This document shows positions 13,021 through 63,199 of a DNA stretch of 64,000 bases, one piece after another. Location of the stretch: assembly GCF_030684315.1 (NCBI RefSeq), contig NC_081382.1, positions 9,611,267 through 9,675,266 on the forward strand. Reading direction: 5' to 3'. The notes under the pieces are model-generated. The model was not told where the DNA came from. It did not search any database and worked only from the letters and a program-made list of their open reading frames with translations. Position 1 is the stretch's first letter. Every line of letters begins with the position of its first letter. Origin of the DNA: Stegostoma tigrinum. Lineage: Eukaryota. The position numbers and the translations under genes were made by a program.

Positions 13021-14394
13021 ATTTTCGCATTGTTCAAGTCCTTTCAAAATATCAGCTGCTGGCTAACACCCCATCACCAAGAGTTGGTTTAATACCGAAC
13101 TACGGTATGCAGCCTCATATTCAGACTTGTATTGCATTATTGCCACATTTTTGTTCCGGTGTGCCAACTTGCAGTGTGACTTGGACCGAAGACAACATGC
13201 TTTTCTCACCGGATTTTCACAGCTGCTGGCAAGAAAGACAGATACTTCCCCGTAAGTGCTTCACAGCATTTTGTGACTGAGCAGCTTGCATCCGCAGTTG
13301 TGCCAAAGTAGGGGAGAATGCTGAACAACAAAATAAACACAAAAAGCAGCTGCCACTGCAATGGCAAGACCTGCCTCCCAGTCTCCTTGAAATTGTTCAG
13401 TGCTGACGTGCTCTAGATTGTGTCAACTAGCCTGCTGCAGGATCTTACTTGAGTGAAACTCATAGAAAGGTGGAAGCAAATGAACTGAACAGTTTCCACA
13501 ATTGAACAGGAGTCCACACCAGCCCGGCTTTGCCTTTCAATGCAAGAAACTTATAGTTATTCATGATGCGCCGAGATAATTCTCAGAGCTAAGAATTTGA
13601 AACTTCCCCTTGCTTATGTTAGATCTTCATTGAAGAATGAATTTTCTTCATCATACATTACAGAAATAAGAGAATCTGGGTTGGCTATGCACATTGTCAG
13701 AAAATAATCATCAACAGAACTGTACCTTTCAGTGAGACTTGATTCAAACAGATAGTGGAAAGATGGCAAAAATGATGCCTTTCTTTCAAGCCTCCCCCTG
13801 ACCAACCTCAACCGTATGCATTTCTAAGGCATGTTTTTTTTGTAAGTTGTGCCTCTTGAGAACAGACTACTGAATTTCTTTTGTGAATTTGGAAATAGAG
13901 GAAAAGTTAATGATTATTTTTCAATATCCTCATTATAGCTGCAATATTATTACACGGATCCGTAAAAGCACTATGCTGATAGGAGAGAAAAATTACATCA
14001 CGACATGGGACATACTGGTTTCATAAGCCTTCATCTTAATCTGAGTGGTTAATGAGTTAATTTGTAACAGTCAGTCCAGTCAGTCTGATCAGTCACCAGT
14101 TCATTCAGCTCACCAGCCTCCTGACTGTGTATATAGTGGGAAATTAATCTAAGTGACCATATTGCCCTGACTAAGTCTGAGATATCATCTCAATGCATAT
14201 AATTTGTGGGGTTAATGAACTTTAAGACACCTGTCTCAACAATGGAAATTAGACACTGCAGTTTCACAAAGAACGTACAGGTTTTATTTTGAAACTTGCT
14301 GGTTAAAAGTATAAATGTGCAATGTTCCTTTGTTCATTTCGCAAGGTCATGTGGCTTCTGATGAGAAGATGGATTTGATATGTTTGTGAGACAA

Positions 14395-14710
14395 TTAGAT
14401 TAGATTCCCTACAATGTGGAAACTGGCCCTTTGGCCCAACAAGTCCACACCGCCCTTTTCAACATCCCACCCAGACCAATCCCCCTATAACCCACACACC
14501 CCTGAACACTATGAGCAATTTAGCTTGGCCAATCCACCGGGCCTGCACATCTTTGGACTGTGGGAGGAAAGCAGAGCACCCGCAGGAAACCCACGCAGAC
14601 ACAGGGAGAATGTGCAAACTCCACAGAGACAGTCACCCGATGCTAGATTTGAACCCGGGTCCCTGGTACTGTGAAGCTACAGTGCTAACCACTGAGCCAC
14701 CGTGCCACCC
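14395..14710 (-). mobile_element. HE1-type V-SINE
   Basis: tRNA head (GGTGGCTCAGTGGTTAGCAC; GGTTCAAATC), V-domain GTCTGCGTGGGTTTCC...TCCCACAGTCCAAAGATGTGCAGG, and (TCTAA)n tail. Confidence 0.92.
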
Positions 14711-16347: not shown

Positions 16348-16686
16348 GGCATAGCAGCTTAGTGATTAGCGCTGCTGCCTCACAGCACCAGAGACCTGGG
16401 CTTGATTCCGCCTCAAGAAACTGTACCTGTGGAGTTTGCATATTCTCCCTGTGCCTGTGCAGCTTTCCTTGGGATGCTTTGATTTCCTCCCACAATCCAA
16501 AGATGCCCAGGTCATGTGGATTGGCCATGGGAAATTGCTCATATTGTCTAAGGATGTGCAGGATATGTGGATTAGTCTTGGGGGATGCAGTGTTACAATA
16601 AGTGGGTCTGGATAGTCTGTTCTTCAAAGTGTCAGTGTGCACTTGATGGGCTGAATAGCCTGCTTCCACAGTGTTGGGATCCTAGG
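16348..16686 (+). mobile_element. HE1-type V-SINE (diverged)
   Basis: TTAGTGATTAGCGCTGCTGCCTCACAGC head, V-core TTTCCTCCCACAATCCAAAGATG, and CR1-like tail. Confidence 0.85.
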
Positions 16687-19381: not shown

Positions 19382-22322
19382 TTGAACAATGAACAATACA
19401 GCACAGCACCAGGCCCTTTGGGCCCTCCAAGCCTGCAAGCTACATTCTGCTATAACAGTCTTCACTTACAGGATCCATACCCCTCTATCCTCACTAGTCC
19501 CTTCCTATTCATGTATTTGTCCGGATGTTTTTTAAATGCTGCTATCGTGTCTGCTTCCACCACCTCCCCTGGCAATGCGTTCCAGGCACTCACCACGCTT
19601 TGAGTGAAAAACCTGCTTCGCACACCTCTTTTAAACATCCCCCCTCCCCACACTTCAACCCATGTCCCCCTAGTAATTGACCCCTCCACCCTGGGAAAAA
19701 GCCTCACACTTTCTATTCTATTCATGTCATTCATAATCTTATAAACTTCTGTCAGGTCACTCGTCAACCTCCTCAGTTCAAGTGAAAACAAACCCAGTCT
19801 ATCCAACCTTTCTTCATAGCTAAAATCCCCAATACCAAGCAACATCCTGGTAAACCTTTTCTGTTCCCTCTCCAAAGCATCCACATCCTTCTGGTAGTGT
19901 GGTGATGAGCACTGTATGCCATATTCCAAGAGTGTCCTGGCTAAAGTTCTATATAGCTGCAGCACAACTTGCCTATCCTTATTTTCAATGCCCCTTCCAA
20001 TCAAAGTAAGTGTGCCATAGGCCTCCTGCACTAGCTTATCTGTCTACTCCTCCATTTTCAGTGACCTGTGGACCTGCACACCAGATCTCTCTGCATATCA
20101 GTACTCTTAATGAATCTGCCTTCAATGAATAATTTCCACCTGTACTTGGCCTTTTAAGATGCGTTACCTCACAGCAGGCCAAGCAGCATCTTAGGAGAAC
20201 AAAAACTGACATTTCGGGCATAGAAACATCAGCCTTTGTGCTCCTAAGATGCTGCTAGGCCTGCTGTGTTCATCCAGCTCTACACTTTGTTACCTCTGAC
20301 TCTCCAGCATCTGCAGCTCCCATTATCTCTGCATTACCTCACATTTGTCCGGATTAAACTCCATCTGCCATTTTCCTGCCCATGCCTCTAACTGATCTAT
20401 CCAGCTATATCCTCTGACAATCCTCCTCAGTGTCTGCAACTTCACCAATCTTTGTATCATTCACAAACATACCACATTTTCCTCCAAATCATTTATGTAG
20501 ACTGTGAGCAGCAGAGGTCCAGCGCTAATCCCTATGGTACACCACTGGTCACAACCTTCCATTCTGAAAAAAACATCCTTCCATTGCTACTCTCTGTCCC
20601 CTGTGACTAAGCCAGCTGACCCCTGATACCATGTAACATCACCCTTTATACCAGTCTGCCATGGGGTACCATGTCAAAGGCTTTATTGATGCCCATGTAG
20701 GGAACATCAACTGCTTTTCCATCATCAATCACCTTTGTCACCTCCACAAAAAAAACTCCATCAAGTGAGTGAGGCATGACCTCCCTTGCACAAAATCATG
20801 CTATTGCTAATGAGTCCATTTTTTCTAAATGCTTCCAGATGGTGCCCCTGAGAATGTTTTCCAATAATTTCCCGACCACTGATGTGAGGTTCACAGGCTT
20901 GTAATTTCCTGGATTATCCTTGCTGCCCTTCTTAAACAAGGGGACAACATTGGCTAGTCTCCTGTTCTCTGGGGCCTCATCTGTGGCCGAAGACGATATA
21001 AAGATACCTGTCCATGCTCCAGAAATTTATTCTCTTGCCCTTCTCAATATTTCAGGGTAGATCCCATTAGGACCCAGTGACTCATCTACCTTAGTACTTT
21101 TTAAGATTCACAACATTTCTTCCTTTTTAATAGCAATTTAGAAATTTGTCACTCCTTCCCTGAGATTATCCTCCACCAATTCCTTCTGTTTGGTGAATGT
21201 TGACATAAAGTATTCATTTAGGACCTCGCCCATCTCTTCTGGCTCCATGGATAGATTGCACCCTTTATCCTTGAGTGGGCCAAACCTTTCTGTGGCTATG
21301 TTCTTTTTTTATATATATATATAAAAAGCTTTGGGATTGTCCTTTATCTTGTTTGCTAACCATTTTTCATGGCCTCTTTTAGCCCTTCTAGTTCCTTGTT
21401 TTTTCCGACTTTCTTACTTCAATGACTTTGTCAATTCCATGCTCCTAGACCTAATTTATGTTTCCTTTTTCTTTTTGACCAAGGTCATAACATCCCAGTC
21501 TTCTAACGTTCACATAACTTGCCCATATCTATCCATCATTCTCACAGGAACATGGTGCTGCTGATCTTATATCAACTGCCATTTGAAATACTTCCACACA
21601 TTTGATGTGGATTTACCCTCGAACAGTTGCCTCCAATTAATATTCTATAGTTCTTGCTTGATATTGTTGTCATTCACCTTGCCCCAATTTAACACCTGCA
21701 CCTGAGGACCCCTATTACCCCTATCCATGTGTACCTTATATCTCATGGTATCATGATCACTACCCCTGAAATGCTCCCCATTGATACTTCAGCCAATTGA
21801 CTGGGTTCATCTACCAAAGTTATGTCCAGTATAACCAGTTCCCTGTTTGGACTGTCAAGAAACCCTTCTGAATGGTCCTTACAAATTCTGCCCCATTCAA
21901 GACCCTATCGTGTCGTGAGTCCCAGTCAATATAAGGGAAGTTAAAATCACCCACCGCAACAAGCCTGCTGCTTTTATTATATCTTCCCAAAATCTGCCTA
22001 CATATCCTCTCTTCTGTCTCCCATTGGCTGTTGGGAGGCCTATAGTATACTCCCAGCATTATACTTACCCCAAATTGCCTCAGTGCATGAGTCCTCTGAA
22101 TGATCCTCCCTCAGTTCAGCTGTGAGATAGTCCTTTATGTGTGATACAACTCCCCTACCCCTTTTCTAACCTTTCCTATCATACCTGTAACATCCAAATC
22201 CTGGGACAATCCTATCCCTCTTCCAACCAAGCCTCTGTATTTGTAATAATGTCATAGTTCTAAGTGCTAACCAAAGCTCTCCGTTCGTTTACCTTGTCTA
22301 TTACACTTCTCACATTGAGATG
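19382..22322 (-). mobile_element. CR1 LINE, nearly complete but decayed ORF2 (APE endonuclease to 3' tail)
   Basis: ORF 21820..22059 has GVYYRPPNS and VGDFNFPYIDW (endonuclease). ORF 19462..20031 is the CR1 C-terminus. Tail near 19382. Confidence 0.92.
20174..20329. mobile_element. Palindromic PLE-terminus mini-insertion nested in CR1
   Basis: GCAGGCCAAGCAGCATCTTAGGAG...CTCCTAAGATGCTGCTAGGCCTGC. Direct repeat TGC(G/A)TTACCTCACA at 20160-20173 and 20330-20343. Confidence 0.88.
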
Positions 22323-29629: not shown

Positions 29630-30005
29630 AAATCTGATTGTGAACCCAATCAATGATTGCTGTAAAGGACCTTCTGGTTCACCAATGTCCTTTGGGGAAG
29701 GAAACTGTCATCCTTACCTAGATAACAAAGTGTGGAACTGGATGAACACAGCAGGCCAAACAGCATTTTAGGAGCACAAAAGTGCTCCTAAGATGCTGCT
29801 TGGCCTGCTGTGTTCATCCAACTCCATACTTTGTTACCTCTGATTCTCCAGCATCTGCAGTTCCCATTATCTCTGTAAACCTTACCTAATCTGGCCTCCA
29901 GAATGACAGCAATGTGTTTGACTCTTAACTGCCCTTGGAGCTATTATGGGCAGGCAATAAATGTTGGCCTAGCCAACGATGTCCTCATCCCAATGAAGAA
30001 TAAAA
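29630..30005 (+). mobile_element. tRNA SINE body/tail interrupted by a PLE hairpin
   Basis: CTGGTTCACCAATGTCCTTTGGGGAAGGAAACTGTCATCCTTACCT|...|TCTGGCC...GGGCAGGCAATAAATGTTGGCCTAGCC. Confidence 0.8.
29721..29879. mobile_element. Palindromic PLE-terminus mini-insertion
   Basis: Hairpin centred on GGAGCAC-AAAA-GTGCTCC (29771-29788). Direct repeat CCTTACCTA at 29712-29720 and 29880-29888. Confidence 0.9.
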
Positions 30006-30853: not shown

Positions 30854-32055
30854 TGACCAAACAGGTAGATGAGAGTAAACCGGTTGATGTGGTGTCTATG
30901 GATTTCAGCAAGGCGTTCGATAAGGTTCCCCACAATAGGCTATTGTACAAAATGCGGAGGAATGGAATTGTGGGAGACATAGCAGTTTGGATCGGAAATT
31001 GGTTTGCTGAAAGAAGACAGAGGGTGGTGGTTGATGGGAAATGTTCATCCTGGAGACCAGTTACTAGTGGCGTACCGCAAGGGTCGGTGTTGGGTCCACT
31101 GCTGTTTGTCATTTTCATAAATGACCTGGATGAGGGCGTAGAAGGATGGGTTAGTAAATTTGCAGACGACACCAAGGTCGGTGGAGTTGTGGATAGTGAC
31201 GAAGGATGTTGTAGGTTACAGGGAGACATAGATAAGCTGCAGAGCTGGTCTGAGAGGTGGCAAATGGAGTTTAATGTGGACAAGTGTGAAGTGATGCACT
31301 TCTGTAGGTGTAACTGGAATGCAAAGTACTGGGCTAACGGTAAGATTCTTGGTAGTGTAGATGAGCAGAGAGATCTTGGTGTCCATGTACACAGATCCTT
31401 GAAAGTTGCCACCCACGTTGACAGGGCTGTTAAGAAGGCATACAGTGCTTTAGCTTTTATTAATAGAGGGATCAAGTTCCAGAACCAAGAGGTTATGGTG
31501 AAGCTGTACAAAACTCTGGTGCGGCCGCACTTGGAGTATTGTGTACAGTTCTGGTCACTGCATTATAAGAAGGATGCGGAAGCTTTGGAAAGGGTGCAGA
31601 GGAGATTTACGAGGATGTTGCCTGGTATGGAGGGAAGGTCTTACGAGGAAAGGCTGAGGGACTTGAGGCTGTTTTCATTAGAGAGAAGAAGGTTGAGAGG
31701 TGACTTAATTGAGACATATAAAATAATCAGAGGGTTAGATAGGGTGGATAGGGAGAGCCTTTTTCCTGGGGTGGTGACGGCGAACACGAGGGGGCATAGC
31801 TTTAAATTGAGGGGTGAAAGATATAGGACAGATGTCAGAGATAGTTTCTTTACTCAGAGAGTAATAAGGGTATGGAGCGCTTTGCCTGCAACGGTAGTAG
31901 ATTCGCCAACTTTAGGTACATTTAAGTCGTCATTGGATAAGCATGTGGATGTACATGGAATAGTGTAGGTTAGATGGGCTTGAGATTGGTATGACAGGTT
32001 GGCACAACATCGAGGGCCGAAGGGCCTGTACTGTGCTGTAATGTTCTATGTTCTA
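30854..32055 (+). mobile_element. Young CR1 LINE, 5'-truncated within RT
   Basis: Uninterrupted 359-aa ORF 30889..31968 with DFSKAFDKVPH, SGVPQGSVLGPLLF and SKFADDTK, followed by 3' UTR and GTTCTAT tail. Confidence 0.97.
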
Positions 32056-34854
32056 TAACTCTGTCAGAACTGTGCTGGAGGAATCCAAACACATGTAATG
32101 GAATCAGCATGTTCAGAAAAATAGAGTTCAGGCTCATTACCTACCCTTATCGTGCCATTTTAATTTTGAAAGCTTCCTGCAATGGGGCTGCGGAGATGTA
32201 TTATTGAATCCAGTGCCCCTCACCATGTATTTTCCAGCTTACTTCTTTCCAATGTGGACAGAGGAATGAAAATCTAGCTTTGGATTTCTTTACAAATTGG
32301 GCAATTGATTGTTCTACATGAGTGACCACTTATACCGCTGAGTAAATTCGTCAGAAAGGAGCTTTGGACAGAGCAAATGCCATTCTTGTCAACCTTGGTG
32401 CATATTCACAGCATTTTGGCAGATATCACTCACATGTGAGGACCCAGGCTGCTGAGACCTCTCCCACTTTTGGTATTCAGATGCAACTTGTGAAAATATT
32501 CCCAGCCCAGATCAATTAACTCCATACTAGCTGATAATCAGGTCTGTAAGCATTCTACCCTGTACAATTCAGCCACTCACTGAATAAATCTGGTGAGGCA
32601 CTGTTCGGTCCAGGTACAGGCTGATGATCACTTCATTTGCTACAGGCACTCTTCCCTAAATTGCATCTCTTCTATTATTATGTTTCCTGCAGTTTCTTCT
32701 CCTCTTAAAGCATACACAAGATTACACAAAGGACACTGAAAATAATGTTTACATGATAAAGTAAGCTTGAAATGTTTCTTGAAAAATAAGCAAGGGATAA
32801 TTGGTATACTGCAAACTATAATAATCTTGTTCATCTACAAGATTACAAAACTGTGGGTATTTTAAACTGAACCTGAAGGTGATTGAAAATTGAATTATTT
32901 TCTGATAAAAGCCGTCAATGTCTGCTTCTTGCATAAAGAACAATGGGTTAAAGATGGTTTCAAAGAACAACCATAAACATTATTGCCATCTGACAGGATT
33001 CAGAGGATTGAATTGAAGACACCATTTACCTGTCACTTTTAACATGCCTGTGAGGACTCTAGTGAGACATTGATAAATGATCTCTATTGATAAGAAAACT
33101 ACATAACCCATAAACTGCAGTGTGCATCAGGTGGATTTAATGGAACTCATGAATGCAAAATCTGATAGGATATTCACAGCCTGAGCCCTCTAGCTGCTCC
33201 TGAAGTGCTGTAAAGTGTGCTGTACATTTATATAGTCATTTACATAAGGTTTAATATGTTCTATGTAACACACAATTCAAACAAGGATATGTACTGTCAA
33301 TGTCCAAAATACTGAGCAACATGTTCCATTAGCTGTGCTCATTCCAAGCTCATCCATAGCCACTCATATTGTATGTTGATCATTGCTCAGGTGAGCTTTA
33401 AGTGCCAACTCATATCCACACAGAGTTGTTTATTTTAATCTCCTTAGCGAGCACCTGTGCATCTCCATTATGAGACCAGGAAATGTTAATGGAAATAGGA
33501 CAAGGCCTTTATCTTCACCTTCCATGCTGCAGAAACATTCTGCTCAATGAATATCCCTGCTCATAGCAACCTGTAGTGACTCCCAGTCTTCACCAGATGC
33601 AGATCTCCACTCGATCTCTTAATTCTCCATTTACATAACCCTTCTGAAATCTAAATGATGCAACCAAGAGGTCACTAATCTCTGCTGTTCTTTTATCCAC
33701 TGGTTGGGGCATTTTTGTTTTTGACCTGTTCTGTTTGTGGAGTACCTTGTGACTTTTTTTATTACGTAAGGCCACTATAGAAAAGCACATGTTTGACGCT
33801 ATTCTTGTTACTAACATACCTACCTTTACCAATTGGTTGTGCGCTGTTTATATTTTTCCTGCTTTTAATCTAATATAAAGACATAAATTGAAAATCACCT
33901 GGCACCTTTCTTAGAAAAGAATGCAGTTAGGCGATAGATGCAGGCAAAATCATATTGTGAATTTGCAGTAAAAAAGGTTACCAGTGACAAGTATGGATCA
34001 GTATGAATTGCTGCAGGTTTAAATTTAAGTATTGGCTAAACTGCTCAACAACTGCAACACTCTCCAACTTGCTGTAGCCAGATCTTGTAATTGGTTGCTG
34101 TGAGCATGAATTTATACAGCTGTTCAGTGGCTCGAGAGCTTTAAACTTGTGATTGTATTAAAAATTCATAGTTCTCAAAAATACTGAGAGGAAGTGAATT
34201 CATTTCCATCTGAAGATGATGGTAGTTTGATAACCTCCAGCTCCACTGTTATTTATTGCCCAGTAAATTTTGTAATACATATTAATGCCTCTGTTATTAT
34301 CACACTTCAACATGTTTACTCATTTCCATTTGGATTTAATGGCACATTTTTATCAAGAGGCTTGTAAACTGTTTTGATGAAATTGGGTTTGTTACTTCTT
34401 TCCAAACTTGTTTGGAGGGCAGGATAAGGGTGGGATTAAGACTTTAGTTGTTACTAGGGCTCTGCCAATGATTAAAATGCATTGAAAAACATAATAAATA
34501 ATCACTCATAATGCACAGAACAATGTTGTTTATGTTTTGAATAACAGAGGCTATAAAAATCATCAGGAAGCTCTTTTCTTTTAACCTCCAGAAGCAAAAG
34601 ATGACTCTAAATATTACAGACGTCACCCTGTTTCACACCTTTAAGCATAATCCCCCAAATGCCTCTGGACCACCCTAACCCTATTCCTAAATTCTGTTAT
34701 CTTCCAAAACCTTTACTGAAGCACCTTCGCCTTAGCCCCATGTCCTGCCCCTCAGTGTCCAGGCTTACTGCAACCCATGAACTTATTTCTAATCTCAAAA
34801 CATGCTTCACATTTGTAAAAAGCACCTTCTTGCTTTTATTGAGGTCGTGATTTT

Positions 34855-35845: not shown

Positions 35846-38235
35846 CATAGAACATAGAACATTACAGCACAGTACAGGCCCTTCAGCCCTCGATGTTGTG
35901 CCGACCTGTCATACCAATCTCAAGCCCATCTAACCTACACTATTCCATGTTCGTCCATATGCTTATCCAATGACGACTTAAATGTACCTAAAGTTGGCGA
36001 ATCTACTACCGTTGCAGGCAAAGCGTTCCATACCCTTACTACTCTCTGAGTAAAGAAACTACCTCTGACATCTGTCCTATATCTTTCACCCCTCAATTTA
36101 AAGCTATGCCCCCTCGTGCTCGCCGTCACCATCCTAGGAAAAAGGCTCTCCCTATCCACCCTATCTAACCCTCTGATTATTTTATATGTATCAATTAAGT
36201 CGCCTCTCAACCTTCTTCTCTCTAATGAAAACAGCCTCAAGTCCCTCAGCCTTTCCTCATAAGACCTTCCCTCCATACCAGGCAACATCCTAGTAAATCT
36301 CCTCTGCACCCTTTCCAAAGCTTCCACATCCTGCTTACAATGCAGTGACCAGAACTGTATGCAATACTCCAAGTGCGGCCGCACCAGAGTTTTGTACAGC
36401 TTCAACATAACCTCTTGGTTCTGGAACTTGATCCCTCTATTAATAAAAGCTAAAACACTGTATGCCTTCTTAATAGCCCTGTCAACGTGGGTGGCAACTT
36501 TCAAGGATCTGTGTACATGGACACCAAGATCTCTCTGCTCATCTACACTACCAAGAATCTTACCATTAGCCCTGTACTTTGCCTTCTGGTTACTCCTACC
36601 AAAGTGCATCACCTCACACTTGTCTGCATTAAACTCCATTTGCCACCTCTCAGCCCAGCTCTGCAGCTTATCTATGTCTCTCTGCAACCTACAGCATCCT
36701 TCGTCACTATCCACAACTCCACCGACCTTAGTGTCGTCTGCAAATTTACTAACCCATCCTTCTACGCACTCATCCAGGTCATTTATAAAAATGACAAACA
36801 GCAGTGGACCCAACACTGACCCTTGTGGCACACCACTAGTAACTGGTCCCCAGGATGAACATTTCCCATCAACTACCACCCTCTGTCTTCTTTCAGCAAG
36901 CCAATTTTCGATCCAAACTGCCATATCTCCCACAATTCCATTCCTCCGCATTTTGTACAATAGCCTATTGTGGGGAACCTTATTGAACGCCTTGCTGAAA
37001 TCCACATCAACCGGTTTACTCTCATATACCTGTTTGGTCACCTTCTCAAAGAACTCAATAAGGTTTGTGAGGCACGACCTTCCCTTTACAAAACCGTGTT
37101 GACTATCCCTAATCAATTTATTCTTTTCTAGATGATTATAAATCCTATCCCTTATAACCTTTTCCAACACTTTACCAACAACTGAGGTAAGGCTCACTGG
37201 TCTATTATTACCAGGGTTGTCTCTACTCCCCTTCTTGAACAGGGGAACCACGTTTGCTATCCTCCAGTCATCTGGCACTATTCCTGTAGACAATGACGAG
37301 TTAAGTGGCAAAGGCTCGGCAATCTCCTCCCTGATTTCCCAGAGGATCGGAGGATAAATCCCATCCGGCCCAGAGGACTTATCTATCTTCACCCTCTGAA
37401 GGATTTCTAATACCTCTTCCTTGTGAGCCTCAATCCCACCTAGTCTAGTAGCCTGTATCTCAGTATTCACCTCGACAACATTGTCATTTTCTAGAGTGAA
37501 TACTGTTGAAAAATATTCATTTAGTGCTTCCCCTATCTCATCTGACTCCACACACAACTTACTACTACTATCCTTGATTGGGCCTAATCTTACTTTTGTC
37601 ATTCTTTTATTCCTTAAATACCTATAGAACGCCTTAGGGTTTACCCTGATCCTGTCCACCAACAACTTCTCATGTCTCCTCCTGGGTCTTCTGAGTTCTC
37701 TCTTTAGGTCTTTCCTGGCTACCTCGTAGCCCTCAAGTGCCCTAACTGAGCCTTCATATCTCATCCTAACATAAGCCTTCTTCTTTCTCTTGACTAGAGC
37801 TTCCACCTCCTTCATAAACCACGGCTCCCGCACTCTACAACTTCCTCGCTGCCCGACAGGTACATCCTTATCTCGGACATACAGGAGCTTTTCCTTGATT
37901 AAGCTCCACATTTCTAATGTGCCCATCCACTGCAGTTTCCTTCCCCATCCTATGCTCCCTAAATCTTGCCTAATCTCATCGTAATTGCCTTTCCCCCAGC
38001 TATAACTCTTGCCCAGTGGTATACATCTATCCCTTTCCATCACTAAAGTAAACATAACAGAACTGTGATCGCTATCACCAAAGTGCTCACCTACTTCCAA
38101 ATCTAACACCTGGCCAGGTTCATTGCCCAGTACCAAATCTAATGTGGCTTTGCCCCTTGTTGGCCTGTCTACATACTGTGTCAGGAAGCCCTACTCCACC
38201 CACTGGACAAAAACTGACCCATCTATAGTACTCGA
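35846..38235 (-). mobile_element. Young CR1 LINE, 5'-truncated in the endonuclease domain; 733-aa ORF2 remnant
   Basis: ORF 35935..38136 has HFGDSDH, KSSGPDGI, WRIANVVPLFKKG, QHGFVKGRSCLTNL, GVPQGSVLGP and FADD. CATAGAACATAGAAC tail at 35846. Confidence 0.97.
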
Positions 38236-38491: not shown

Positions 38492-38675
38492 GTCATGATG
38501 TGGAGGTCCTGGTGTTGGTCTGGGGTAGACAAAGTCAGAAGTCACATGACACCAGGTTATAGTCCAACAAGTTTCTTTGAAATTACAAGCTTTAGGAGTG
38601 ACTTCACCTGACGAAGGAGCAGCGCTTAGACAGCTTGCGATTTTAAACAAACCTGTTGGATTATAACTTAGTGAT
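38492..38675. mobile_element. Palindromic PLE-terminus fragment (third family) with decayed hammerhead
   Basis: GTTATAGTCCAACAAGTTT...ACAAGCT is mirrored by AGCTTGCG...AAACCTGTTGGATTATAAC. Motif CAC-CTGACGA-A-GGAGC-AGC-GCTTA-GAC-AGCT-T-GCG at 38605-38639. Confidence 0.7.
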
Positions 38676-38676
38676 C

Positions 38677-39100
38677 AGAGATAACGGGAACTGCAGATGC
38701 CGGAGGATCTGAGATGACAAAGTGTGGAGCTGGATGAACACAGCAGGCCTAGCAGCATCTCAGGAGCATAAAAGCTGACGTTTCGGGCCTAGACCCTTCA
38801 TCAGAGAGGGGGATGGGGAGAGGGAACTGGAATAAATAGGGAGAGAGGGGGAGGCGGACCGAAGATGGATAGAGGAGAAGATAGGTGGAGAGGTGAGTAT
38901 GGGTGGGGAGGTAGGGAGGGGATAGGTCAGTCCAGGGAGGACGGACAGGTCAAGGGGGCGGGATGAGGTTGGTAGGTAGGAAGTGGAGGTGCGGCTTGAG
39001 GCGGGAGGAGGGGATAGGTGAGAGGAAGAAGAGACGACAAGAGAGTTGCAGTGGGAGAGAGATCCCCTAAGATTGGTCCGGAGGGAGGAGGGGACAAGAC
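38677..39100 (-). mobile_element. PLE 3' end (same family as 41283)
   Basis: Near-identical to 41283-41560, including the terminus and the purine-rich tract. Confidence 0.9.
38775..38806 (-). ncRNA. Minimal hammerhead ribozyme motif
   Basis: CU-CUGAUGA-A-GGGU-CUAG-GCCC-GAA-ACGU-C-AG. Stem I is only 2 bp. Confidence 0.65.
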
Positions 39101-40745: not shown

Positions 40746-41282
40746 TCACTTTCCTGATTGCATCTCAATGGTATGTGTTGTGCTTAGGCAATGAAAGATT
40801 CTGCATTCTATCCTTATATGGCTAACAACTTTATTTTTAACTCATTATGTTAAAGTTATGAACTAATGCTTACATTATTCAGGAGCACCATACCAGTTCT
40901 AGCTGAAGGCTCTGGACATCTGTTTAATGAAGCTTCCTGTATATGTTGGGGAAATGGCAAATGAATTAAACAGTTCTGCAGCAGTTTAACTCTGAACATT
41001 GAACGTCAAATTGTACGATATTTCAACCATTTGTATAATTGGCTGACCAAACTGCTAATCACATTTTAATTAAAAACTTTCATTGGACCACGCAGTTCTT
41101 AATATCTCAGAATACATTTTTAAAAATAAAAGTTACATTAATTTTAAAAATGATTCCAAACATTGCGGATCATTGATTAAAAGCATTCTTGCGTAGTGCA
41201 CCCTCCCTGCTGCCTTGCTGAGTAATTCTGCAGATCATGTTGCATTCTGTTGTAATTCAGATGCCAAACCTACTCTTTTGCT

Positions 41283-43038
41283 AGATAATAAAATGTGAGG
41301 CTGGATGAACACAGCAGGCCAAGCAGCATCTCAGGAGCACAAAAGCTGACGTTTCGGGCCTAGACCCTTCATCAGAGAGGGGGATGGGGAGAGGGAACTG
41401 GAATAAATAGGGAGAGAGGGGGAGGCGGACCGAAGATGGAGAGTAAAGAAGATAGGTGGAGAGAGTATAGGTGGGGAGGTAGGGAGGGGATAGGTCAGTC
41501 CAGGGAAGACGGACAGGTCAAGGAGGTGGGATGAGGTTAGTAGGTAGATGGGGGTGCAGCTTAGGGTGGGAGGAAGGGATGGGTGAGAGGAAGAACAGGT
41601 TAGGGAGGCAGAGACAGGTTGGACTGGTTTTGGGATGCAGTGGGTGGAGGGGAAGAGATGGGCTGGTTGTGTGGTGCAGTGGTGGGGGGGAGAGGATGAA
41701 CTGGGCTGATTTAGGGATGCAGTTGGGGAAGGGGAGATATTGAAACTGGTGAAGTCCACATTGATACCATATGGCTGCAGGGTTCCCAGGCGGAATATGA
41801 GTTGCTGTTCCTGCAACCTTCGGGTGGCATCATTGTGGCAGTGCAGGAGGCCCATGATGGACATGTCATCTAAAGAATGGGAGGGGGAGTGGAAATGGTT
41901 TGCGACTGGGAGGTGCAGTTGTTTGTTGCGAACTGAGCGGAGGTGTTCTGCAAAGAGGTCTCCAAGCTTCCGCTTGGTTTCCCCAATGTAGAGGAAGCCA
42001 CACCAGGTACAGTGGATGCAGTATACCACATTGGCAGATGTACAGGTGAACGTCTGCTTAATGTGGAATGTCATCTTGGGGCCTGGGATAGGGGTGAGGG
42101 AGGAGGTGTGGGGGCAAGTGTAGCATTTCCTGCGGTTGCAGGGGAAGGTGCCGGGTGTGGTGGGGTTGGAGGACAGTGTGGAGCGAACAAGGGAGTCACG
42201 GAGAGAGTGGTCTCTCCGGAAAGCAGACAGGGGTGGGGATGGAAAAATGTCTTGGGTGGTGGGGTCAGATTGTAAATGGCGTTAGTGTCGGAGGATGATG
42301 TGTTGTATCCGGAGGTTGGTAGGGTGGTGTGTGAGAACGAGGGGGATCCTCTTAGGGCGGTTGTGGCGCGGGCGGTGTGTGAGGGATGTGTTGCGGGAAA
42401 TACGGGAGACGCGGTCAAGGGCGTTCTCGATCACTGTGGGGGAAAGTTGCGGTCCTTGAAGAACTTGGACATCTGGGATGTGCGGGAGTGGAATGTCTTA
42501 TCGTGGGAGCAGATGCGGTGGAGGCGGAGGAATTGGGAATAGGGGATGGAATTTTTGCAGGAGGGTGGGTGGGAGGAGGTGTATTCTAGGTAGCTGTGGG
42601 AGTCGGTGGGCCTGAAATGGACATCAGTTACAAGCTGGTTGCCTGAGATGGAGACTGAGAGGTCCAGGAAGGTGAGGGATGTGCTGGAGATGGCCCAGGT
42701 GAACTGAAGGTTGGGGTGGAAGGTGTTGGTGAAGTGGATGAACTGTTCGAGCTCCTCTGGGGAGCAAGAGGCGGCGCCGATACAGTCATCAATGTACCGG
42801 AGGAAGAGGTGGGGTTTGGGGCCTGTGTAGGTGCGGAAGAGGGACTGTTCCACGTAACCTACAAAGAGGCAGGCATAGCTGGGGCCCATGCGGGTGCCCA
42901 TGGCCACCCACTTAGTCTGTAGGAAGTGGGAGGAGTCAAAAGAGAAGTTGTTGAGTGTGAGGACGAGTTCAGCTAGGCGGATGAGAGTGTCGGTGGAGGG
43001 GGACTGGTCGGGCCTGCGGGACAGGAAGAAGCGGAGGG
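41283..43038 (-). mobile_element. Penelope-like retroelement, 5'-truncated (RT C-terminal half plus GIY-YIG endonuclease), young but disrupted
   Basis: RT: MAMGTRMGPSYACLF, RYIDD, FLD, RPTDSHSYL. GIY-YIG: NVVYCIHCTWCGFLYIGETKR..FAEH..PVANHF..EQQLIFRLGT..GIN. TSD CCTACTCTTTTGCT at 41269-41282 and 43039-43052. Confidence 0.96.
41346..41377 (-). ncRNA. Minimal hammerhead ribozyme motif in the PLE terminus
   Basis: CU-CUGAUGA-A-GGGU-CUAG-GCCC-GAA-ACGU-C-AG on the PLE sense strand. Confidence 0.65.
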
Positions 43039-44205
43039 CCTACTCTTTTGCTGTTCCTTTTCTCAAACTGTTCAGCGACATGCTTCACTTCAACATTCCT
43101 CCATGGTGTTACTTTTCATTTTGATTGCCTCTAAAGCTGTATTTATTTTTCTATTGCCCCTTCCTCTTTCTGTTACCGTCCCCTCCTCTTAAATTAACCC
43201 TTTCTACTGCACTGTTCATCATGCTGCTTAAGGCTTCTGCAATGCTAGATAATCAATCTTAAAGACAGCTTTAAAGACGCTCAATATAATTCAAGGACCA
43301 TTTAACATCTGAAATGAACATCGTCTCCTCATGCAACATCCTTCTAAGGAAGTAACGCATAATTACAGTGTGTAAAACAAAGGCAATGTATTAATCGTGG
43401 TGGACTTCATATAGGCTGCTCAAAACAAATCACTGAAGACAGTCAGGAGGATGAATTTGCAGAACCAGAAATGGTAAAATTACTTTAGATCTTGATCTGT
43501 GAAATGAGGCAGGTTTAACCACTATCCTCATCGCATATACTCTTGGGAAAATGTTGTCACAGTAAAATTGAACTCCATATTAAATTTAAAACACAAGACT
43601 AAGAAAATTAAATGTCCAGGTTGGCTTTGTTGGTGAAATGAATACATTGTGGTGATGCAGAATTGGGGGGTTTATTCAATGCTGGGGAAAAGGAGCAGAA
43701 AACTGGTTGAGGAGGCATCAGGAATTGTGATGGAGCGAAGCTCAAGATATAAAGGAGGGAGTTGGCAGTAAATGAGAGGGCATGGGAAATGATGGAACTG
43801 GGGATGTTATCAATCATCACCACCACTTTGACCTACATGGGGTGGGGTGGGGGAGTCAGTGGGGGTACAATGAAGCATAATGGTAGATTTTACCAAACTA
43901 CAGTGCCAGGGCATATGGGCAAGGAGAAATGTTGGGGTATTCTTTAATGTGGTGGGTGATGACATATTGAGGTTTAAGGGAGATAGACTGTCCAGAGGCA
44001 GGAAATGGAACAGGACGTAGAGGCTCTGGGGAGGTACATGCTGACCAGGCCAAGCCCCATTCTGAGGCTGTTCCATGTCATGACTTTCCAATTGCTTGAA
44101 GTGACCTGCAACTGGAAAAATACCCAAGGTGGACAAAATCAGTTTCAGCTTGATGGGCAAAAGCACAGGCTTCACTTCTGCTTGATAGAACTGCATTGAA
44201 GTTTG

Positions 44206-48279: not shown

Positions 48280-48572
48280 CATAGAATCCCTACAGTGTGG
48301 GGACAGGCCCTTTGGTCCAACAAGTCCACACAAAGCCTCAAAGCATCCCAGCCCACTACAACCCATCGAATCTACATAGCCCTGAACACTACAGGCAATT
48401 TAGCATGGCCAATCCACTTAGCCTGCACATCCTTGGACTGTGGGAGGAAACCCACACAGACACAGGGAGAATGTGCAAACTCCACACAGACTGTTGCTGA
48501 AAAGGGCAGAATCGAACCTGGGTCCCTGGGGCTGTGAGGCAGCGATGCTAACCATTGAGCCACTGTGCCGCC
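48280..48572 (-). mobile_element. HE1-type V-SINE
   Basis: GGCACAGTGGCTCAATGGTTAGC head, GGTTCGATTC B-box and V-core. Confidence 0.9.
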
Positions 48573-48689
48573 CTATATGCCTTATGGGGAAGGTTTATTC
48601 TTATCCAAATTACTTATGCCCTTAATGATTCTGTACACCTCAGTCAGACCCCCTCACCCTTCTCTGCTCCAAAGAAAACAATCCTACCA

Positions 48690-48830
48690 TCGTCTCCAAT
48701 GAAGGGTCTGGGCCCGAAACGTCAGCTTTTGTGCTCCTGAGATGCTGCTTGGCCTGCTGTGTTCATTCAGCTCCACACTTTGTTATCTTGAATTCTCCAG
48801 AATCTGCTGTTCCTATTATCTCTGATCTCG
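48690..48830 (+). mobile_element. Short PLE terminus insertion (hammerhead core mutated)
   Basis: CCAATGAAGGGTCTGGGCCCGAAACGTCAGCTTTTGTGCTCC... Imperfect flanking repeat AATCC(T/G)ACCA. Confidence 0.8.
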
Positions 48831-49689
48831 AATCCGACCAATGTAATCTCTCTTCATAGCTGAAGTATTCCTGCCTGGGAACTTTCTCCTGGAAAATTAG
48901 TTTAAACTGCTCCACTAATAGATCTAGCAAATTTCCTGCAAGCACGTTGATTCCAATCCATTTCAAGCGCAATACAGTGGACCTGTGTTTGTCCCACCTT
49001 ACCCAGAATTGGAATCAATAATCCAGGATTCTAAAGCCCTCCTTTTCTCACCAAATCTTCAGACAGATATTCATCCACTCCATTCATCTATTTCTACACT
49101 CACTAGCACACAATGCTGGGAGTAAACTAAAGATTCCAGACTTTGAACTCTTGCGTATGAATCTTAGTATCCTGAAAGTTTGTTGCAGGGCCTTATCTCT
49201 CTTTATAATATGAACCATAACCTGTTACTATCTTCTCTCTTCAGGATGCCCTGCAGCTGTTCAATGTTATCATTGACCCTAGGAGAGGCTGCATATCATC
49301 CTGGAGTCACATCTGTGGTTGCAGAATTGCCTATCTTTCACAGTTGAGCCTTCTATCTCAATCACTCTTCCGCTCTTTCTCCTCCCCGCAATGTGCAGTG
49401 GACCTGGGTGTATGCTCCAGTACAACTGTGTCTCCTACTGTTTTCCAGCACAAGACAAGATTGTTCGAGTTCAGCTAATTTGGAGTTCCAGTCAGAGCTC
49501 CAAATAATTACAGGCCCACCATAATTGGATTTCCTGCTCCCATGACACAAATGTCTAACACGTAGAATTTCAATTTACCTGCATTGATTTAGTACTATTT
49601 CACAATACTTTAAAATGGGCTTTTTAGTCATGCAAAGATTTGGAGTAAACTTGAGGAAACGTGAAATTTTAGGAATCAATAAATAACAC

Positions 49690-59299: not shown

Positions 59300-59965
59300 T
59301 CAATACAGCATGGAGCTGGAAGATCACAGCATGGCAGGCAACATCAGAGGAGCAGGAAAGTCGATATTTCAGGTTTACACCCTTCATCAGGACGGGGAGG
59401 GAGAAGCCAGCTCAGAAATAAATGGAGGAAGGTGCCTGAGGCTGGGGGATTGTTGGTGGGATGGTGATAGGTGGATGCAGGTAGGGGTTTGAGGAAATTG
59501 GTCATGGGAAGTGTGAGGCAGATAAGGGAGAAAGAAAATGGACAGGTTGTGTCAGGTCAAAGAGGCAAGAATGAGAAGGAGGGTTGGACTGGGGATGGGG
59601 TGAATTTGAAACTGATGAATTCTATGTTCAGGCTGTAGGCTCCTGAGGCAGAGTATGAGGTGTTGTTCCTCCAGTTTATGAACAGGTTGGAGGACGTGTG
59701 GGAGTTGGAAAGATTGTTTGGAACCTTGGACAGAGGTGAGAGGGAAGGTATGGGGGCAGGTGTAGCACGTCCTGCAGTTGTAGAGAAAGGTCCCCAGTGT
59801 AGTGAGGTTGGTGGGCAGTACAAAGCGGATGAGGGAGTCGCGGAGACAGCGATCCCTATGGAAAGCAGTTACGGGTGGGAAGAAAAATATATCTTTGGCC
59901 GTGGGGTTGGATTGTAGGTCGTGGAAGTGGTGGGGGCGGGATGATGTGTTGGATTCAGAGGTCAA
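59300..59965 (-). mobile_element. Degraded PLE 3' portion (41283-like family)
   Basis: ORF 59552..59965 contains AFHRDRCLRDSL, CRTCYTCP and KLEEQHLILCLRSLQP. Confidence 0.85.
59360..59393 (-). ncRNA. Minimal hammerhead ribozyme motif
   Basis: GUC-CUGAUGA-A-GGGU-GUAA-ACCU-GAA-AUAU-C-GAC: 3-bp stem I, 4-bp stem II, palindromic AUAU. Confidence 0.7.
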
Positions 59966-60490: not shown

Positions 60491-60814
60491 TAGATTAGAT
60501 TAGATCAGATTAGATTCCCTACAGTGTGGAAACAGGCCCTTCAGCCCAACCAGTCCACACCGCCCCTTGAAGCATCCCACCCCGACCCATCCCCCTATAA
60601 CCCACACACCCCTGAACACTACGGGCAATTTAGCATGGCCAATCCATCGAGCCTGCACATCTTTGGACTGTGGGAGGAAACCGGAGCACCCGGAGGAAAC
60701 CCAAGCAGACACGGGGAGAATGTGCAATCTCCACACAGACAGTCACCCAAGGGTGGAATTGAACCTGGGTCCCTGGCGCTGTGAGGCTGCAGTGCTAACC
60801 ACTGAGCCACCGTG
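60491..60814 (-). mobile_element. HE1-type V-SINE (young)
   Basis: A/B boxes GGTGGCTCAGTGGTTAGC and GGTTCAATTCC, intact V-core, (TTAGA)n tail at 60490-60515. Confidence 0.95.
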
Positions 60815-62052: not shown

Positions 62053-62090
62053 ATATACCAGACTATGTGAGAAAATGTGAAACATTTCCA

Positions 62091-62192
62091 GTGATAATGG
62101 GAACTGCAGGTGCTGGAGAATCCCAGATAACAAAGTGTGGAGCTGGATGAACACAGCAGGCCAAGCAGCATCTCAGGAGCACAAAAGCACTG
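62091..62192 (-). mobile_element. About 100-bp PLE terminus insertion with TSD
   Basis: Direct repeat GAAACATTTCCA at 62079-62090 and 62193-62204. The insert is the terminus segment downstream of the hammerhead. Confidence 0.9.
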
Positions 62193-63199
62193 GAAACATT
62201 TCCAATCTGATTCAGGTCCTCGCAATCATCTTGTTTGACATTTTTTCGATGGCTTTATCAGTCCTATTTCCCTTTGTCATTCCGGATTAGAAACTTTTGT
62301 CAACTTTGCCTCAAACATCCAACATATTCTCTTCTTCACATGGCCCATTTCCAACTTTACTGTCTCTATTTCTGGACATCGAGTGGAAAGCTACCAATTC
62401 TGAGTCACATGGGCTACAGTGAGATGAATGTTAGATTCAGGCAAATGGCCATCTGGAGATTAAACTCATCTTGTCACAATTTCCCTACTCAGCTCAAGAT
62501 TCTCATCAAAAAGTAGTGACTTCCCATTTAATATCTTGCATTGTTTATTATGTGGCTTGATGACAGCCAAATTCATCACAGATGGTGATGTTAGCAAACT
62601 CACCATACAACCTCGTCACTGGGATAACTCAACATGGAATCCAAAGTGGTTTATTGGCAGTTTCAATTTGCCCCTTGCTCTTAAAGGTGTTTGTGTTGCA
62701 TGCCCAGGCAGCAATGTCTCAGGCATGCTCCATGGGCACTGGCCACATGACACTCAAGTCTGTGGGCATTGGCACCTGGCATGTGTCAGCCTCAATGAGC
62801 TGTTATGGCACATGCCCAATCTGTACACAGGCTGCTCCTGCAATTCAGTGCTATATTTTAAGCTTCACTGGAAACTACCGTTGTAACACTGCAGAAATGA
62901 ATTTGTGGACTCAAGTACATGGGCTGGACCAGACTGCATCTCAATATATTTGTTCATTATCAGAGTGCTGACTGAGCCCGAGCCTGCCTGGATGCTCACA
63001 GTAACCCTGCCTTGTCTTGTTTTTTGGCACTTTACCTCCTCAGCCAGAGATAACTGGGTCATATTAGTCCTGTTGCACTGTGTAGTTTAGTGTAGTCACA
63101 AAGCCAGGAGGTTTGCCATGGCCTTCAGCAAACCTCAGTCCATTCAAGAGGTTAGTCTTTACTCAGGTGGTCCCAGCAAAGTAAGGAAAGGGCAGCCTC

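Follow-up and report, generated by a model that had tools for sequence, protein, structure and literature searches.

Within the 64,000-nucleotide stretch of Stegostoma tigrinum DNA analysed here at full length (the window), a short insertion derived from the terminus of a Penelope-like element (PLE; 62079..62204) has its 5' end next to the predicted cleavage site of the element's hammerhead ribozyme, and the question that it raises is whether the ribozyme made this end. The function of PLE hammerheads is called unclear in PMC8557442, and 5' ends piling up at the cut would have provided the first in-vivo evidence of cleavage for this PLE family. Positions in the element are counted on its sense strand, which is the minus strand of the window. 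The C of GAAACGUC, found at 41348 and 38777 in the intact copies, is taken as 0, and +1 is the first base of the 3' cleavage product.

Structure of the insertion

The insertion is bounded by two identical 12-mers (62079..62090 and 62193..62204, plus strand) which do not extend further outwards and have 102 nt between them; a repeat of at least 12 was reached by only two of 3000 random placements in the window, our chance control for the target-site duplication (TSD). The segment 62089..62188 (minus strand) aligns to +101 to +2 of the terminus, with 90% identity over 100 nt to the copy at 38676, 92% to that at 48693 and 93.8% over 64 nt to that at 41283. Thus the PLE-terminus retro-insertion with a 12-bp TSD that was originally predicted is borne out by the identical 12-mers and the 100 nt of homology. 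The segment is the 3'-terminal 100 nt of the PLE pseudo-LTR without the ribozyme, and it includes, at 62089..62124 (minus strand), the optional 36-nt "tail" (+66 to +101; for the concept see PMC11167929 and PMC8557442), which is absent from the 41283 copy and from the inverted partners. The last two bases of the left TSD also match the 3' end of the element, from which we infer a microhomology used in priming. Folding of the 100-nt insert gave a stability no better than that of shuffled sequences (z = -0.06).

On the 5' side, the original prediction had placed the cut correctly and had the homology stop one nucleotide short of it, and both points stand: the last aligned base is +2, +1 is missing, and the end of the insert adjoins the cut. 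The junction itself is more complex. Its 5-nt fill (62188..62192, plus strand) matches the reverse complement of the insert's own 3' end; more fully, 62188..62196 is the exact reverse complement of the left junction (62085..62093), a 9-bp inverted repeat which is made up of 62188..62192 (including the last "homologous" C) and four TSD bases, and which was reached by one of 400 random placements. Moreover the inverted piece carries the copy's private T-to-A change at +98. The fill may be a vestigial inverted partner, as in the two-armed insertions 20160..20343 and 29705..29888, or a snap-back fill. Since the five junction bases are an inverted copy of the insert's 3' end, it is not certain where the cDNA really stopped: the last "homologous" C could be part of the inverted piece, and the cDNA ends at +2 or +3, followed by fill-in.

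The parent element and its hammerhead

The surrounding window is repeat-rich shark DNA. It holds two LINE reverse-transcriptase copies (30854..32056 and 35847..37040), presumably CR1-like, which are 94.8% identical over 1.2 kb, lie in inverted orientation 3.8 kb apart and have long open frames, and a dispersed repeat of ~310 bp that is SINE-like by size (14394..14704, 60504..60814, 48282..48567 and 16357..16587; 74-89% alike).

The family reference is a 5'-truncated PLE (41283..43039, minus strand) with RT and GIY-YIG remnants, a tail-less 3' end at +65 and an exact 14-bp TSD (41269..41282 and 43039..43052); in the window and in contigs, 3' ends of the family fall at +65 and +101. The RT remnant (42434..43039) is 97% identical to a predicted protein named from S. 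tigrinum and 89% identical to one from Rhincodon typus, and RT and GIY-YIG motifs are visible in the window pieces 42434..43039 and 41334..42281. Searches of Pfam with the window pieces returned no match at E 0.001: the RVT_1 match was weak (E 0.0053 on the window piece, 6.8e-8 on the relative P0003) and that of GIY-YIG on the 97%-identical P0005 (E 0.0019) lay below the curated cut-off. The PLE protein had 640 homologues, several of them with both the RT and the GIY-YIG families, while a PDB sequence search with the RT piece found no match. The element has the features of an EN+ PLE, i.e., an RT followed by a C-terminal GIY-YIG domain, a hammerhead, a tail and inverted partners. The open reading frame 41331..42281 also has a C-x4-C-x2-C linker before the GIY-YIG motif, in line with the CX2-5CxxC linker between RT and EN that is a feature of the Neptune clade (PMC8557442).

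The minimal type-I hammerhead core is intact at 41348..41375 (minus strand; predicted cut between 41348 and 41347) and in a second copy at 38777..38804. By pattern match its parts in the intact copies are CUGAUGA, a 4-bp stem II and GAAACGUC, and the core was present by pattern in all eight copies examined; an Rfam search of the whole window at the gathering score found no match. The best predicted fold of the region is an alternative pairing, not the active one. Beside the core, stem I has two contiguous pairs in seven of the eight copies. The remaining one, the diverged 59311 copy, has three, and its two inner pairs are each changed on both sides, i.e., in a compensatory manner. These compensatory changes point to a hammerhead under structural constraint, and the stem I pattern as a whole suggests constraint but a weak fold. 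The diverged copy (59345..59390, minus strand) also has a GNRA loop on stem II.

Published data on such ribozymes concern both their activity and its consequences. In vitro, no cleavage was seen for monomers of minimal PLE hammerheads, and a low level for dimers (PMC4209133). The study of an anole PLE (PMC11167929) reports hammerhead cleavage only with protein present, insertion that was unaffected in hammerhead mutants (cleavage being dispensable in vitro), uncleaved RNA as the dominant template, and no RNA-seq reads with a start or an end at the cut. As to coding capacity, the ORF of the shark element reads through the hammerhead to a stop at about +14 (41331..41375, minus strand); in a transcript that begins at -31, the core ATG would be the start of an upstream ORF of 13 codons, and the main ORF of the anole PLE starts at the same core ATG region (PMC11167929).

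5' ends of other copies in the window

A profile of the terminus found 15 segments in the window at E below 1e-5, with four weaker matches set aside. Five of the 15 extend past -60; the other ten are short, with 5' ends at about -32, -30, -30, -27, -26, -17, -7, +2, +3 and +8, so that five of the ten end at -26 to -32 and three at +2 to +8. Under a uniform model over -40..+40, one of ten short segments would fall in +1..+3 with P = 0.31. When an eleventh segment (+35, read by eye) was included (n = 11), P was about 0.003 for five ends in -26..-33 (bins picked post hoc) and 0.11 for three ends in +1..+9 (also post hoc bins, +3 and +8 being arms of one insertion). Without the -30 cluster, P for the +2..+8 group was 0.04 per segment (arms taken as independent) and 0.14 per insertion. 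The +2..+8 group of window ends is a hint, not a result.

The commonest short type is exemplified by a mini insertion at 48680..48840 (plus strand; 10-bp TSD, one mismatch) that runs from -30 to +101 and contains the whole hammerhead. Most short copies keep the whole ribozyme, a data point that agrees with uncleaved RNA as the main template. Two further mini insertions are two-armed: that at 29705..29888 (16-bp TSD, two mismatches) has an inverted arm from +65 to +3 and a direct arm from +8 to +101, while that at 20160..20343 (14-bp TSD, one mismatch) has both arms past the cut (about -17 and -7). At 29705 the junction resembles a palindrome that lacks six bases and has the self-complementary AGCT (+1..+4) at its centre. 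A copy at 38676..39033 (minus strand) has the tail, the intact hammerhead (38777..38804) and a TATA-like run (38831..38838). Relative to the young-family majority the insert at 62079..62204 differs in five columns, three of them private; its base at +16, the only diagnostic site shared, is that of the long copies and of the -30 copy and not that of the +3/+8 insertion. No second copy with both ends as in the insert was present among the 15 window segments.

5' ends in contigs of sequencing runs

Contigs of four of 21 runs (X1, X9, X5 and X10) were matched to the reference 38673..38912 at 85% likeness; X1 alone had 124,765 contigs on the terminus, with some X1 events uncounted. Among the rows listed, the best-supported 5'-side loose end with long, unlike flanks was at 38805 (-28), with 578 contigs in X1 (median 255 nt, agreement 0.37), and it resembled the true 3' ends of that run at 38710, 38711, 38712 and 38717 (+67 to +60; 433-725 contigs each). 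Another X1 loose end, at 38893 (304 contigs), had short, alike flanks and corresponds to a difference of the reference copy. At the cut itself (38775/38776, +2/+1) there was no loose end among the best 24 of 536 rows in the four runs. Thus the pile-up of 5' breakpoints at the cut that the original prediction had called for was not seen among the rows listed, the main listed peak being at -28 to -31, upstream of an intact ribozyme; nor do the 5' ends listed for the family concentrate at the cut in the manner of R2 or Perere-3. A smaller peak at +1 could be present, given that the statement covers the best 24 of 536 rows and that some X1 events were uncounted.

The junctions had a similar distribution. 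Seven of the 12 between-letter junctions listed (58 in total) start at 38806..38808 (-29 to -31), and the remaining ones fall once each at +1 (38776, X1), +11, +20, -72 and -116. Among the best 15 of 30 joint rows, four of the seven go-back or strand-change joints involve 38806..38808; the joints listed include a tandem unit of 98 nt (+66 to -31), present in five contigs. The ends at -29 to -31 are real, as they occur in the TSD-flanked 48693 copy and in the tandem joints; the -28 count may in part come from clipped copies of older subfamilies, or of families with which only the ribozyme is shared, as in X10. Six listed junctions (reference 38766..38808) run from -29..-31 to +3..+11, and at least three of the six are same-strand, i.e., a bare hammerhead of ~35-43 nt doubled in tandem; it is in such an arrangement that minimal hammerheads have been proposed to function as dimers.

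Summed contig depth, which does not equal copy number, had no step down at the cut (5'/3' ratio of 1.24, 0.83 and 0.93 in X1, X9 and X5 respectively), while across the outer edge of the ribozyme, over a wider interval than that of the cut ratio, the values were 0.40 (X1), 0.17 (X9) and 0.12 (X5). Depth in X9 and X5 had already halved between +40 and +9, a stretch in which both the reference and older subfamilies also have mismatches; mismatches of the older subfamilies there can explain an X5 loose end at 38768 (+9; five contigs). Run X10 (38 contigs) was left out of the end counts and depth ratios because its matches are for the most part confined to the 35-nt ribozyme core. Contigs of this run, which is from another organism, have unlike flanks on both sides of 38770..38807 (reference), with 19 loose ends at each edge: either the hammerhead core is conserved across families or core-only inserts exist. 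Scans of metagenome_contigs, viral_contigs and genome_contigs with the terminus pattern returned no match.

A possible transcript start at -28 to -31

Upstream of the hammerhead lies a TATA-like A/T run (41402..41409, minus strand), a putative promoter. It starts at -61, and a TCT-initiator match follows 30 nt downstream, at -31 (41379). TATTTA is able to serve as a TATA box. The run at 41402..41409 is the only A/T run of at least six in 265 nt upstream, and in the two young long copies, over 236 and 265 nt of upstream sequence, the sole such run begins at -61; it lies at -62 in the older 3197 copy, and 33 and 30 nt before the core in the diverged 59311 and 8841 copies. In total, five of six long copies, belonging to several subfamilies, have an A/T run 30-35 nt before the core (41402..41409, 38831..38838 and the equivalents upstream of 3290, 59390 and 8930), the exception being the 2781 copy, without one that long.

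Initiator patterns coincide with the outer edge of the ribozyme. With the TCT-initiator pattern (YC+1TYTYY; PMC13532657), one of five matches within a pyrimidine-rich stretch would put the first transcribed base of both young copies at -31. With the Inr pattern (BBCA+1BW; PMC5287114), the same position would result in the two older copies, from the single match in one and from one of three in the other. The spacing from the A/T run to -31 is 30 and 31 nt in the copies, and 30-31 nt is the optimum TATA spacing reported in mouse (PMC1779604). Against a general rule of this kind, Penelope of Drosophila virilis uses a TATA-less internal promoter (PMC2377424).

A cap signature at this position was also considered, as capped 5' ends of LINE-1 and SVA are recognisable by an untemplated G (PMC4859970). 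On the cDNA strand, six of the seven listed junctions at -29..-31 carry an extra C that is absent from the reference, while the C of the seventh is the family majority base, and in both window copies ending at -30 a G precedes on the sense strand. The signature was downgraded, since the single +1 junction also has the extra C, which may therefore have been added without a template in the ordinary way. The possibility of a splice acceptor at -31 was discarded, as there is no AG there.

The RT of PLEs begins synthesis inside its RNA template (PMC11167929), so that a transcript from -31 would yield run-off copies of 96 and 132 nt, and the window and the contigs do contain copies of both types. 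This suggests that the short copies may be run-off cDNAs from a transcript 5' end near -31, as judged from their ends and the motifs upstream. Alternatively, the end at -28 to -31 could arise because the RT stalls where the G-rich tract of the cDNA begins, or because a protein occupies the pyrimidine tract. A more speculative scheme, which we regard as rather unlikely in its entirety, would have the whole swarm of 95-130-bp shark PLE copies consist of strong-stop-like run-offs (TATA-like run at -61, initiator at -31, RT start at +65/+101), with a few self-cleaved transcripts giving the +1 to +3 copies, this insert included. If this were so, the transcript would start four bases before the hammerhead, and the ratio of the two classes (ends at -28..-31 versus +1..+3) would be a genomic record of how often the PLE hammerhead cuts in the germline. 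The pattern of the family, a 5' end at -28 to -31 preceded at textbook spacing by a TATA-like run and an initiator, provides a lead on where transcription starts and on why tiny PLE copies are abundant.

Origin of the insertion

Taken singly, the insertion at 62079..62204 is real but ordinary, an extremely truncated PLE insertion. Its most probable origin, in our assessment, is 5' truncation of a PLE-terminus insertion made by what are likely the element's own enzymes, with an end that probably came to lie near the cut by coincidence, since the short copies of the family mostly end ~30 bases further upstream. The endonuclease would nick both strands 12 bp apart (as the observed TSD and the mechanism in PMC11167929 suggest), and the 3' end of the target would prime reverse transcription at the +101 start, where the insert's 3' end is observed. 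Synthesis of cDNA would stop after about 100 nt, the second nick would prime the 5-nt inverted piece (whose bases are observed) from the same 3'-end sequence, and the two ends would then be joined and repaired. At the preferred stop of the family, -28 to -31, the RT would likely run off the 5' end of an uncleaved transcript; the insert at 62089..62188 would be one of the scattered earlier stops. The 20160..20343 insertion, which crosses the cut in both arms, counts in favour of this origin. That the insert is evidence of in-vivo ribozyme cleavage, as had been proposed for it, is not supported, the main listed 5' peak not being at +1.

Reverse transcription from +101 on the 3' cleavage product up to its 5'-OH end (+1), with one or two bases lost at fill-in, is less likely, though it deserves serious weight as a minority route; it would record cleavage in vivo, the insert being a dead-end product. 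Several observations are consistent with it: the insert ends at +2/+3, both arms of 29705..29888 stop just 3' of the cut (+3 and +8), the anole hammerhead cleaves in the presence of protein (PMC11167929), ribozyme cuts set the 5' junctions in R2 and Perere-3 (PMC3774820, PMC8501958), and stem I of the 59311 copy has its compensatory changes. One contig junction lies exactly at +1, which leaves room for a minor contribution of cleaved RNA. On the other hand, neither a +1/+2 loose end among the rows listed nor a depth step at the cut was seen, one window segment in +1..+3 is expected by chance often enough (P = 0.31), and the self-complementary AGCT (+1..+4) could favour joining at this place without cleavage.

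Two other explanations fit less well than simple truncation. The cDNA might have passed the cut on uncleaved RNA and been joined by way of the similarity between target and ribozyme core, with later remodelling of the junction: the target agrees with the core at six of seven bases, the profile alignment continues through it to about -10, and variable junctions of R2 primed by chance microhomology have been reported (PMC3774820). However, that alignment needs two insertions and has low posterior support, while the inverted-fill reading covers the same bases with no insertions, and we consider such a join very improbable. The least credible idea, to which we attach hardly any probability, is that of a mobile RNA in its own right, tiny and non-autonomous, with a 5' end set by the ribozyme, which had been proposed from the sequence originally. 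Small hammerhead-bearing, non-autonomous PLE derivatives do exist in vertebrates (bioRxiv 10.64898/2026.07.22.740005), but the proposal was not upheld: the insert has neither ribozyme nor promoter-like region and so cannot regenerate its own 5' end; of the five differences that it shows, three are private and none is common to other near-cut copies; and the 15 window segments include no second copy with the same two ends. It thus has neither the own promoter nor the shared diagnostic variants of a SINE-like family. Ordinary truncation of a PLE insertion is our preferred explanation.

Comparison with known systems

Our literature search, in which subscription journals were poorly covered, found no mapping of PLE 5' ends against the hammerhead. 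The accessible descriptions of EN+ PLE insertions (PMC8557442; PMC11167929) agree with the shark family in the high degree of 5' truncation, the two 3' starts 36 nt apart, the inverted 5' partner and the hammerhead in the pseudo-LTR. The insert differs from them in its extreme shortness (100 nt) and in an inverted partner that measures only 5 nt, and the preferred 5' end of the shark family at the outer edge of the ribozyme is not described in those accessible parts. Like the metazoan PLE minimal type-I hammerheads of PMC4209133, the shark ribozyme has no real helix III, palindromic positions after GAAA and an unpaired base before stem II, and it occurs mostly as single motifs in truncated copies; it differs in a stem I of 2 bp beside the core and a stem II of 4 bp, and the insert itself is without the ribozyme.

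The non-LTR retrozymes (bioRxiv 10.64898/2026.07.22.740005) are likewise small, non-coding and derived from a PLE pseudo-LTR. However, they consist of tandem units each with a type-I hammerhead, an arrangement that 62079..62204 does not have, the insert being single and ribozyme-less. The reasoning is shared with R2 (HDV-like ribozyme, PMC3774820) and Perere-3 (twister variants, PMC8501958), where a TSD beside the cut records cleavage; in the shark family, by contrast, the dominant end lies 28-31 nt upstream of the cut.
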